Part shown: positions 18,001-21,000 of the stretch, piece by piece
Numbering within the stretch: position 1 is the stretch's first letter
How the letters are laid out: each line of letters begins with the position of its first letter
NCBI RefSeq assembly: GCF_051903065.1
Contig: NZ_CP178438.1
Length of the DNA stretch: 64,000 bases
Direction: 5' to 3' (one strand)
Source of the DNA: Escherichia coli
GTDB lineage: Bacteria; Pseudomonadota; Gammaproteobacteria; Enterobacterales; Enterobacteriaceae
Position numbers: made by a program

Positions 18001-21000
18001 GCGACCACGATGCACTCTTCCGCCATCCCGCCATCAACGCTGTATCCGGCATTTTTAACTGAACGGCAGAGCGTTTCGTTACCACTGTTACAGTATTCGC
18101 AATGACCGCATCCTTCGTAGAACCACGCCACGCTGGCACGATCGCCTGGTTTTAATGAGGTGACACCTGGACCCACTTCTGCCACCACACCAATCCCTTC
18201 ATGGCCCAGAATTACGCCGGTTTTGTCACCAAAATCGCCATTCTTAACATGAAGATCGGTATGACATACACCACAACACTCCATTTTCAGCAGGGCTTCG
18301 CCATGTTTCAGTGAGCGCAGTGTTTTATCCGTAACGTCAACATGATGAGCCTTCATAGTTCCTCCTTTTCGGATGATGTTCTGCATAGCAGGTGAGGCAA
18401 ATGAGATTTATTCGCCACTACCCAGTATGGATGAGATCTGAAAAAGGGAGAGGGAAATTGCCCGGTAGCCTTCACTACCGGGCGCAGGCTTAGATGGAGG
18501 TACGGCGGTAGTCGCGGTATTCGGCTTGCCAGAAATTATCGTCAATGGCCTGTTGCAGGGCTTCGGCAGAGGTTTTCACCGCCACGCCTTGCTGCTGCGC
18601 CATTTTGCCAACCGCAAACGCAATTGCGCGGGAGACTTTCTGAATATCTTTCAGTTCCGGCAGTACCATACCTTCGCCGTTCAGCACCAATGGTGAATAC
18701 TGCGCCAGCGTTTCACTTGCCGACATCAGCATCTCATCGGTGATACGTGACGCGCCGGAAGCAATAACCCCCAGGCCGATGCCCGGGAAAATAAAGGCGT
18801 TGTTACACTGGGCGATAGGGTAGATTTTATCTTTCCATACCACTGGATTAAACGGGCTGCCAGTGGCGACCAGCGCGTTACCTTCAGTCCAGGCGATAAT
18901 GTCCTGCGGTGTGGCTTCCACGCGTGACGTCGGGTTAGACAGCGGCATCACGATCGGACGCGGACAGTGTTTATGCATCTCACGGATGATCTCTTCCGTA
19001 AACAGCCCGGTCTGTCCTGAGACGCCAATCAGAATATCTGGTTTTACATTGCGCACCACATCCAGCAGTGACAGCACATCGCTGTCGGTATCCCAGTCAC
19101 TGAGGTTTTCGCGCTTCTGCACCAGTTTGGTCTGGAAAGGCAGCAGGTTCGGCATCTTGTCGGTCAGCAGGCCAAAGCGATCGACCATAAAGACTTTCTG
19201 CCGTGCTGCTTCCTCGCTTAATCCTTCACGCTGGGTCTGGGCGATGATCATTTCGGCAATGCCGCATCCCGCTGAACCTGCGCCAAGGAAGACGATTTTT
19301 TTCTCGCTTAACTGACCACCTGCCGCGCGGCTTGCTGCGATCAGTGTGCCGACTGTTACCGCCGCAGTGCCCTGAATGTCATCGTTAAAGGAACAAATTT
19401 CATTGCGATAGCGGTTAAGTAACGGCATCGCATTTTTTTGTGCGAAGTCTTCAAACTGCAACAGCACGTCCGGCCAGCGTTGTTTCACAGCCTGGATAAA
19501 TTCATCAACGAATTCATAGTATTCGTCGTCTGTGATACGCGGATTACGCCAGCCCATATACAGCGGATCGTTAAGCAGCTGTTGGTTGTTGGTGCCGACA
19601 TCCAGCACCACCGGAAGGGTATACGCCGGGCTGATGCCGCCACAGGCGGTATAGAGCGACAGTTTACCGATCGGAATGCCCATCCCGCCGATGCCCTGGT
19701 CACCAAGCCCCAGAATACGTTCACCGTCAGTCACCACAATCACTTTGATATTATGGTTTGGTACGTTTTGCAGAATATCGTCCATATTGTGGCGGTTCTG
19801 GTAAGAGATAAACACGCCGCGTGAACGGCGGTAGATCTCAGAAAAACGCTCACAGGCTGCGCCGACGGTTGGGGTATAAATAACAGGCATCATCTCATCA
19901 AGATGATTGTTTACCAGACGGTAGAAGAGGGTTTCGTTGGTGTCCTGGATGTTACGCAGGTAGATGTGTTTGTCGATTTCGGTTTTGAATCCCTGATACT
20001 GGATCCATGCTCGTTCCGCTTGTTCTTCGATGGTTTCGACCACTTCCGGCAGTAACCCCAGCAGGTTGAAGTTACGGCGTTCTTCCATGCTGAAGGCACT
20101 GCCTTTATTCAACAACGGAAATTCCAGCAGTACAGGGCCAGCGTAAGGGATATAAAGCGAACGCTGTTTTTTTGTTTTTGGTTCCATGTCACTCACTCTT
20201 TTTTGAATATCCATCCCTGGGGGCTTTTATCGTCTTTGCTTTACCGCCAGGGCGTCGGCCCCAAGTATAAAGCAGATAAAAACAAAAACACCATTGCGCA
20301 GGCAATGGTGTTTAATCGTCATTGAGGACTGATGGTTATGAATTACTTTTCAGCGGGGCGTTTTCTGCCGGTTGGGTTATTTACCACGCTGGATTTGTCA
20401 CCTTCGGTAACTATTTTGCGCTGGTTAGAAATTTTATGGTCCAGTCCAAGAATATGACGTGCCTGACGGTTCGATTTCATTTTAACTCCTCAATCCTGTT
20501 GCTAGTTTTAAGGACAACATCGCCGTAGCGAAGAAACACGTGCTAAACCCCTAAATTAGGTTGCCGATCAAGCATAGCACCTTAAAGCGTAGGGTGCTGG
20601 CCACTGACCACATAATTGATCGTTTGCTGGTAGATATCACTGAGGATGTCGTTATCAGAAGCTTCCACCCATTTGGTCAACTCCATGAGAATATCATCTT
20701 CAGTGACAACACCATGCTCTGCCCGAAGGCCTTGCTCAATGGCATTAACCAGAGCGGGTTCTGCTGTTGAATTTTCTGCCTGATAATAAGTAAACATAGT
20801 GATTCTCCGTGTCTGTGTATTTATAGTGTCTGCTACGGATCGCAGATTTATAAAGCACATTCAGCATGGCAAATATTTGCCGCTTCGTTGTTAAGATTAG
20901 TCCTGGTTGATGATTTTTATATTTTAACCCCATGATATTGATAGGTATTATTATTGTGGTGAGTTGATTGATATTGATGCAATATCTCTTGAGATATATA

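Follow-up and report, generated by a model that had tools for sequence, protein, structure and literature searches.

The adhP gene of Escherichia coli, which encodes a zinc-dependent alcohol dehydrogenase, has lost 18 bp in frame in the DNA studied here, a continuous stretch of 64,000 nucleotides to which we refer as the window. The deletion is real, leaves the ribosome-binding site and the ATG start codon untouched, and defines a rare allele found in a single E. coli clone. The gene in which it arose already carried a missense change, L283P. The reading we favor, with a probability of roughly 60%, is that replication slippage removed codons 4-9 on the L283P background and left a weakened or inactive AdhP that the clone would tolerate; for the enzyme itself, this reading draws on sequence comparison and structure models.

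In the window, adhP occupies positions 17364..18356 on the minus strand (330 codons plus stop, from the ORF list) and encodes a propanol-preferring, zinc-dependent alcohol dehydrogenase with del(A4-D9) and L283P, which matches PDB entry 4GKV with an E-value of 3.6e-215. The K-12 protein (b1478, P39451; PDB 4GKV) is the ethanol-inducible, propanol-preferring enzyme of this type, and the window holds the same gene at the same locus (maeA-adhP-yddM-fdnI), with the synteny maeA - adhP - yddM - fdnIHG kept. The identical sequence is annotated by PGAP as adhP (WP_104773295.1) and is called intact despite the deletion. Read on the minus strand from 18367 down to ~18324, the start region is AAGGAGG-aact-ATG AAG GCT CAT CAT GTT GAC GTT ACG GAT AAA. 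The Shine-Dalgarno sequence AAGGAGG (18361..18367, minus strand) lies 4 nt 5' of the ATG and is identical in all 11 strains aligned, and the K-12 and PGAP annotations both place the adhP start at MKA. In K-12 MG1655 the gene (b1478; L005 829-1839, minus strand) encodes 336 aa with the N-terminus MKAAVVTKDHHVDVTYKTL, as does the crystallised protein 4GKV. The original prediction proposed that AdhP in the window is six residues shorter than the reference; the K-12 N-terminus that it cited agrees exactly with the MG1655 translation, and the lengths are 330 aa for the window against 336 aa for K-12 and 4GKV. The alignment pairs residue 2 of the window protein with residue 8 of 4GKV, and nearly all positions beyond are identical. 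Outside A4-D9, all but four aligned residues are those of K-12 AdhP, with the same zinc ligands, NAD-binding motif, ribosome-binding site and start codon. The differences are L283P, which is lineage-specific, and D16, R214 and R336 (Y, H and H in K-12), which are common alleles.

A DNA alignment of the window with 10 other E. coli alleles contains a single 18-nt gap, the intergenic region, Shine-Dalgarno sequence, ATG and flanks being otherwise identical. The deletion junction falls at 18347..18348 (minus strand), where the intact alleles (K-12, ECNB21-M121 and eight other strains) hold the 18 nt GCAGTTGTTACGAAGGAT; the 32-mer that spans it is GGAACTATGAAGGCTCATCATGTTGACGTTAC. The gap placement that requires no substitution corresponds to loss of nt 10-27 (GCAGTTGTTACGAAGGAT), that is, of codons 4-9, encoding AVVTKD. 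MAFFT by default placed the gap at nt 1-18, setting ATGAAGGCT on ACGAAGGAT, but this costs two mismatches and was set aside in favor of the substitution-free placement. The 18-bp in-frame deletion of AVVTKD that had been predicted is therefore borne out by the DNA alignments.

An assembly error, or use of another start codon that restores a normal N-terminus, could mimic such a deletion, and an in-frame upstream ATG does exist at 18386 (18384..18386, minus strand), 30 nt upstream, where it would lengthen the ORF by 10 codons. This ATG, however, is present in every strain examined, is not the annotated start, lacks a Shine-Dalgarno sequence and adds 10 residues without restoring AVVTKD. The gap length is a multiple of three and the gap lies outside any homopolymer, and the same 18-nt gap recurs in independent assemblies, both in two complete genomes and in Logan/NCBI drafts. 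Because the exact protein is found on 11 contigs from independent assemblies in addition to two complete genomes, a sequencing artefact is rejected, and we regard an artefact or mis-annotation of any kind as exceedingly improbable.

Reference genomes do not share the N-terminus of the window: among complete E. coli genomes having adhP, 5,411 of 5,413 have the long form, and all other full-coverage adhP matches carry the 18 nt missing from the window. The two carriers, 23CRST027 and 23CRST031, both come from human faeces collected in Santo Domingo, Ecuador. The exact 330-aa protein (WP_104773295.1) occurs on 8 contigs in the cluster table and on 11 in the contig index. In the four carrier loci compared (two from these contigs and two from the complete genomes), identity to the window is 100% across 4.6-7.2 kb. 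It had been allowed at the outset that the short N-terminus might be normal strain variation; this holds insofar as the allele is a strain-level one, but it is clone-specific and, at ~0.04% of complete genomes, not common. The exact deletion junction found no match in JGI metagenome contigs, and a degenerate-pattern search of 100,044 GTDB species-representative genomes found no encoded alcohol dehydrogenase starting MKAHHVDVT. The single match to that pattern, antisense to an unrelated ORF in a GC-rich MAG, was dismissed as chance. A literature search on the carrier strains, this allele or adhP variants returned nothing relevant.

The other residue differences from K-12 help to place the allele. 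Y16D, H214R and H336R were considered as special changes and ruled out, being common E. coli alleles that are not peculiar to the window: the D16/R214/R336 form, WP_000642407.1, was found in six of 10 other genomes sampled, and D16/R336 in seven of the nine alleles aligned. L283P, absent from the original prediction, is by comparison a further lineage-specific change. Its codon, CCG at 17526..17528 (minus strand), encodes Pro277, equivalent to Leu283 in K-12 numbering, and reads CTG in the other alleles examined outside the L283P lineage. The nearest complete genome outside the clone, ECNB21-M121 (meat, China), is 99.9% identical over 25 kb and encodes the intact 336-aa WP_000642407.1, a direct ancestor-like form whose coding DNA is identical to that of the window except for two events, the 18-bp deletion and the change of CTG to CCG at codon 283. 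Over the same 25 kb, 10 SNPs and the 18-bp indel separate the two sequences, and ECNB21-M121 alone has an IS903B. Polarised against ET350, the window side carries five derived SNPs, at 7482, 11530, 17527 (L283P), 23085 and 28187. A SNP at 18430, upstream of adhP, was examined as a third hit and discarded, since outgroups place the derived state in ECNB21-M121 rather than in the window.

Sister genomes carry the immediate precursor allele, a 336-aa protein with L283P only (UPI001581F353) that keeps codons 4-9. An exact-sequence look-up places this protein on at least 24 contigs; a protein with the deletion only was absent among the 15 billion sequences covered by such a look-up. The L283P-only sister contigs share the derived states at 17527, 23085 and 28187 and have neither the deletion nor the SNPs at 7482 and 11530. 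In the case of one of them (L021), the only difference from the window over 11.5 kb is the 18 nt. Given a full-length, L283P-only gene in sister genomes and no deletion-only protein, L283P came first and the deletion second, so that the order is common allele, then L283P, then del(A4-D9). In terms of individual steps, the common 336-aa WP_000642407.1 would have gained the missense change L283P (CTG to CCG), and an 18-bp in-frame deletion of codons 4-9 would then have occurred on the L283P background.

The sequence at the deletion boundaries suggests how the 18 bp were lost. The first nine coding bases (nt 1-9), ATGAAGGCT, at 18348..18356 on the minus strand, form the retained copy of an imperfect 9-bp direct repeat. 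The copy that was lost, ACGAAGGAT (nt 19-27), is the final 9 nt of the missing 18, matches the retained copy at seven of nine positions and is spaced from it by exactly 18 nt. A direct repeat spaced by the deletion length is the classical signature of slipped-strand mispairing; replication slippage between ATGAAGGCT and ACGAAGGAT would drop one repeat copy plus the spacer, with the first copy staying. A match of at least seven in nine at the boundaries of a random deletion has a probability of 0.0013. Such 7/9 pairs are nevertheless found within adhP at about the chance rate, with 88 observed against 74 expected. Slippage is thus the likely mechanism of the deletion, the imperfect repeat and the near-chance frequency of 7/9 pairs in the gene keeping it short of proof.

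Other AdhP length variants of the slippage type occur in E. coli, namely a DVN tandem duplication (339 aa), present on two allelic backgrounds, and a 335-aa form in which one His of H10-H11 is lost. The 339-aa and 335-aa proteins (P0006, P0014 and P0015) resemble the window form in that they are small in-frame indels at short repeats, each seen in few assemblies. Their variant sites, H10-H11 and D193-N195, fall at a turn or a strand end in the K-12 model, and no strand is removed; among these length variants, only the deletion in the window takes away a conserved secondary-structure element. As a separate observation, the presence of the DVN duplication in two different allelic backgrounds suggests recurrence.

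By most measures the variant is an ordinary member of its family. Against the AdhP equivalog model (NCBIfam NF006940 / PRK09422; cut-off 344), it scores 640.6 bits compared with 655.1 for K-12, the match beginning at profile position 8 with positions 1-7 unmatched. Scores for Pfam ADH_N (94.0 bits, cut-off 23.5) and ADH_zinc_N (103.4 bits, cut-off 31.8) are about equal to those of K-12. The catalytic zinc ligands C37, H58 and C145 (K-12 numbering) are present as C31, H52 and C139, and the structural zinc cysteines C89, C92, C95 and C103 as C83, C86, C89 and C97; the zinc-ligand columns are invariant or nearly so in 62-sequence alignments. The Rossmann-fold motif G169-x-G171-G172-x-G174 is likewise kept, as G163, G165, G166 and G168. 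What the variant does not keep is the N-terminal beta1 segment that opens the GroES-like domain, of which only M-K-A remains. This segment, M-K/R-A-A/V-V/L/I-L/V/I, is a typical feature of the Zn-dependent MDR family rather than a formal defining one, and it is found in 63 of 66 diverse full-length homologues, representatives of clusters at 50% identity or less. Ala stands at position 3 in 51 of these, and positions 4-6 are hydrophobic. The three exceptions are P0049, a fragment that lacks Met, and P0039 and P0084, which start with Met and may be start-codon miscalls.

The second change is harder to read as damaging. Position 283 is variable (L, I, A, F, Y, S and others) within the otherwise conserved G281-S282-x-V284-G285-T-R287, and Pro occupies it in two of 67 diverse homologues (GSPGGTR and GSPSGSR), so that L283P is not clearly harmful alone. 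In horse-liver alcohol dehydrogenase, the equivalent segment is G316-A317-I318-F319-G320, whose backbone atoms bind the nicotinamide carboxamide.

AlphaFold2 models of K-12 AdhP and the variant were built from the same 61 homologues. The K-12 model (mean pLDDT 97.5) has beta1 at residues 2-6, a turn at 7-11 and beta2 at residues 12-16. In keeping with the predicted loss at the first beta-strand, three of the five beta1 residues and the turn are gone from the variant. In the variant model (mean pLDDT 95.8), the strands are shortened to 2-4 and 8-10, the first ten residues have a pLDDT of 71 (97 in K-12), and isolated beta-bridges at K-12 residues 47, 49 and 55 have disappeared; the remainder is unchanged with pLDDT above 90, AF2 being no predictor of stability. 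Our view of the contacts of beta1 and of residue 283 is based on what is generally known of the MDR fold, together with DSSP strings from the AF2 models. For the mRNA around the start, folding gave MFE values of -13.0 versus -12.9 kcal/mol and mean unpaired probabilities from ribosome-binding site to ATG of 0.53 versus 0.66. With values so little changed, an effect of the deletion on initiation through mRNA folding was dropped, as nothing in them is convincing. Because the translation signals are intact, the 330-aa protein should be made. It would keep the zinc ligands and the NAD-binding fold, minus most of beta1 and the turn in the GroES-like catalytic domain. Loss of three of five beta1 residues and the turn probably makes the catalytic domain less stable at its edge, and weaker folding or stability could then yield a hypomorphic or inactive AdhP. 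Against impairment stand the retained zinc ligands and GxGxxG and an equivalog score that falls only from 655 to 641 bits. The clone has also been sampled repeatedly, which argues against a strongly deleterious effect of the allele in nature.

The same evidence bears on the alternative that the allele is a neutral polymorphism whose enzyme works about normally, with MKA-HHVDVT, at the edge of the catalytic domain, re-forming a short N-terminal hairpin. AF2 does rebuild strands at 2-4 and 8-10 and leaves the rest above 90 pLDDT, every catalytic motif is intact, and the clone persists across ~11 assemblies and two isolates labelled 2023. P0039 and P0084 also begin without a full beta1, subject to the possible miscalled starts noted above. 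On the other hand, beta1 with its hydrophobic positions 4-6 is conserved in nearly all diverse homologues, confidence at the new N-terminus drops to a pLDDT of 71, the deletion is limited to two of 5,413 genomes, and the MKAHHVDVT start is absent from species-representative genomes. Taken together, we rate neutrality as possible but unlikely. Whether an AdhP that lacks most of beta1 and has Pro in GS-x-VG still folds into an active tetramer is similarly doubtful in our estimation. If it did, the N-terminal strand that nearly all Zn-dependent medium-chain dehydrogenases conserve would prove dispensable, which would be mildly interesting. The natural series of wild type, L283P and L283P plus del4-9 offers a test of how much N-terminal hairpin an MDR dehydrogenase needs.

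An impaired AdhP, as we favor, would be tolerated by the clone, since adhP is dispensable in E. coli in nature. The gene is frameshifted in ET650, is only 25% covered in strain R2 and is unmatched in 13 of 5,426 genomes. If AdhP were inactive, the clone would be without the AdhP route between short-chain alcohols and aldehydes; other alcohol dehydrogenases of E. coli could cover its loss.

The occurrence of two lineage-specific protein changes in a gene otherwise nearly invariant (98-100% identity to K-12 in a 7-protein alignment) might instead point to positive selection, with inactivation or modification of AdhP being advantageous and the two successive hits its trace. However, once the deletion is taken as given, one or more of the five lineage SNPs that accompany it in 25 kb would land in the 1-kb adhP with a probability of ~0.18. 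This clustering is not statistically significant; we therefore make no claim of relaxed or positive selection, and two hits in adhP as a sign of decay were rejected on the same ground. Moreover, no parallel occurrence was seen in other lineages among the 5,413 complete genomes, and the sister group with L283P only is found more widely than the clone with the deletion. A selected loss or alteration is accordingly very unlikely.

The exact protein is already in RefSeq under the name AdhP, and the gene, enzyme family and locus are well known. The deletion allele is an ordinary strain-level one that matters little beyond strain-level annotation. It may serve as a clone marker, and it carries a caution in that PGAP calls the gene intact though a conserved strand is missing.

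Several features of the neighboring genes were noted in passing. Directly downstream of adhP, yddM (16933-17217, minus strand) is labelled a HigA-family antitoxin by PGAP and a DNA-binding regulator in the K-12 annotation; in the annotation tables consulted, no toxin gene is annotated next to it. The T3SS LRR effector gene espR1 clusters with fragments of LRR-domain genes at ~6895-9478 on the minus strand (L015 898-1821); one fragment is annotated as a partial pseudogene. The IS903B of ECNB21-M121 is inserted between narU and espR1, a site at which the window has no such element. A 366-aa porin (Porin_1/Porin_4) is encoded at 9642-10742 on the minus strand, between yddG and the LRR genes, and is called 'porin OmpC' by PGAP in relatives; its place in the fdn/adhP neighborhood is presumably not the usual ompC position. 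Finally, the ORF list and some draft calls (L019) split fdnG (12115-15162, plus strand) into two ORFs, 12115-12702 and 12751-15162, where PGAP has a single CDS of 1015 aa. The interruption is the in-frame TGA codon that formate dehydrogenase-N alpha is expected to use for its selenocysteine.
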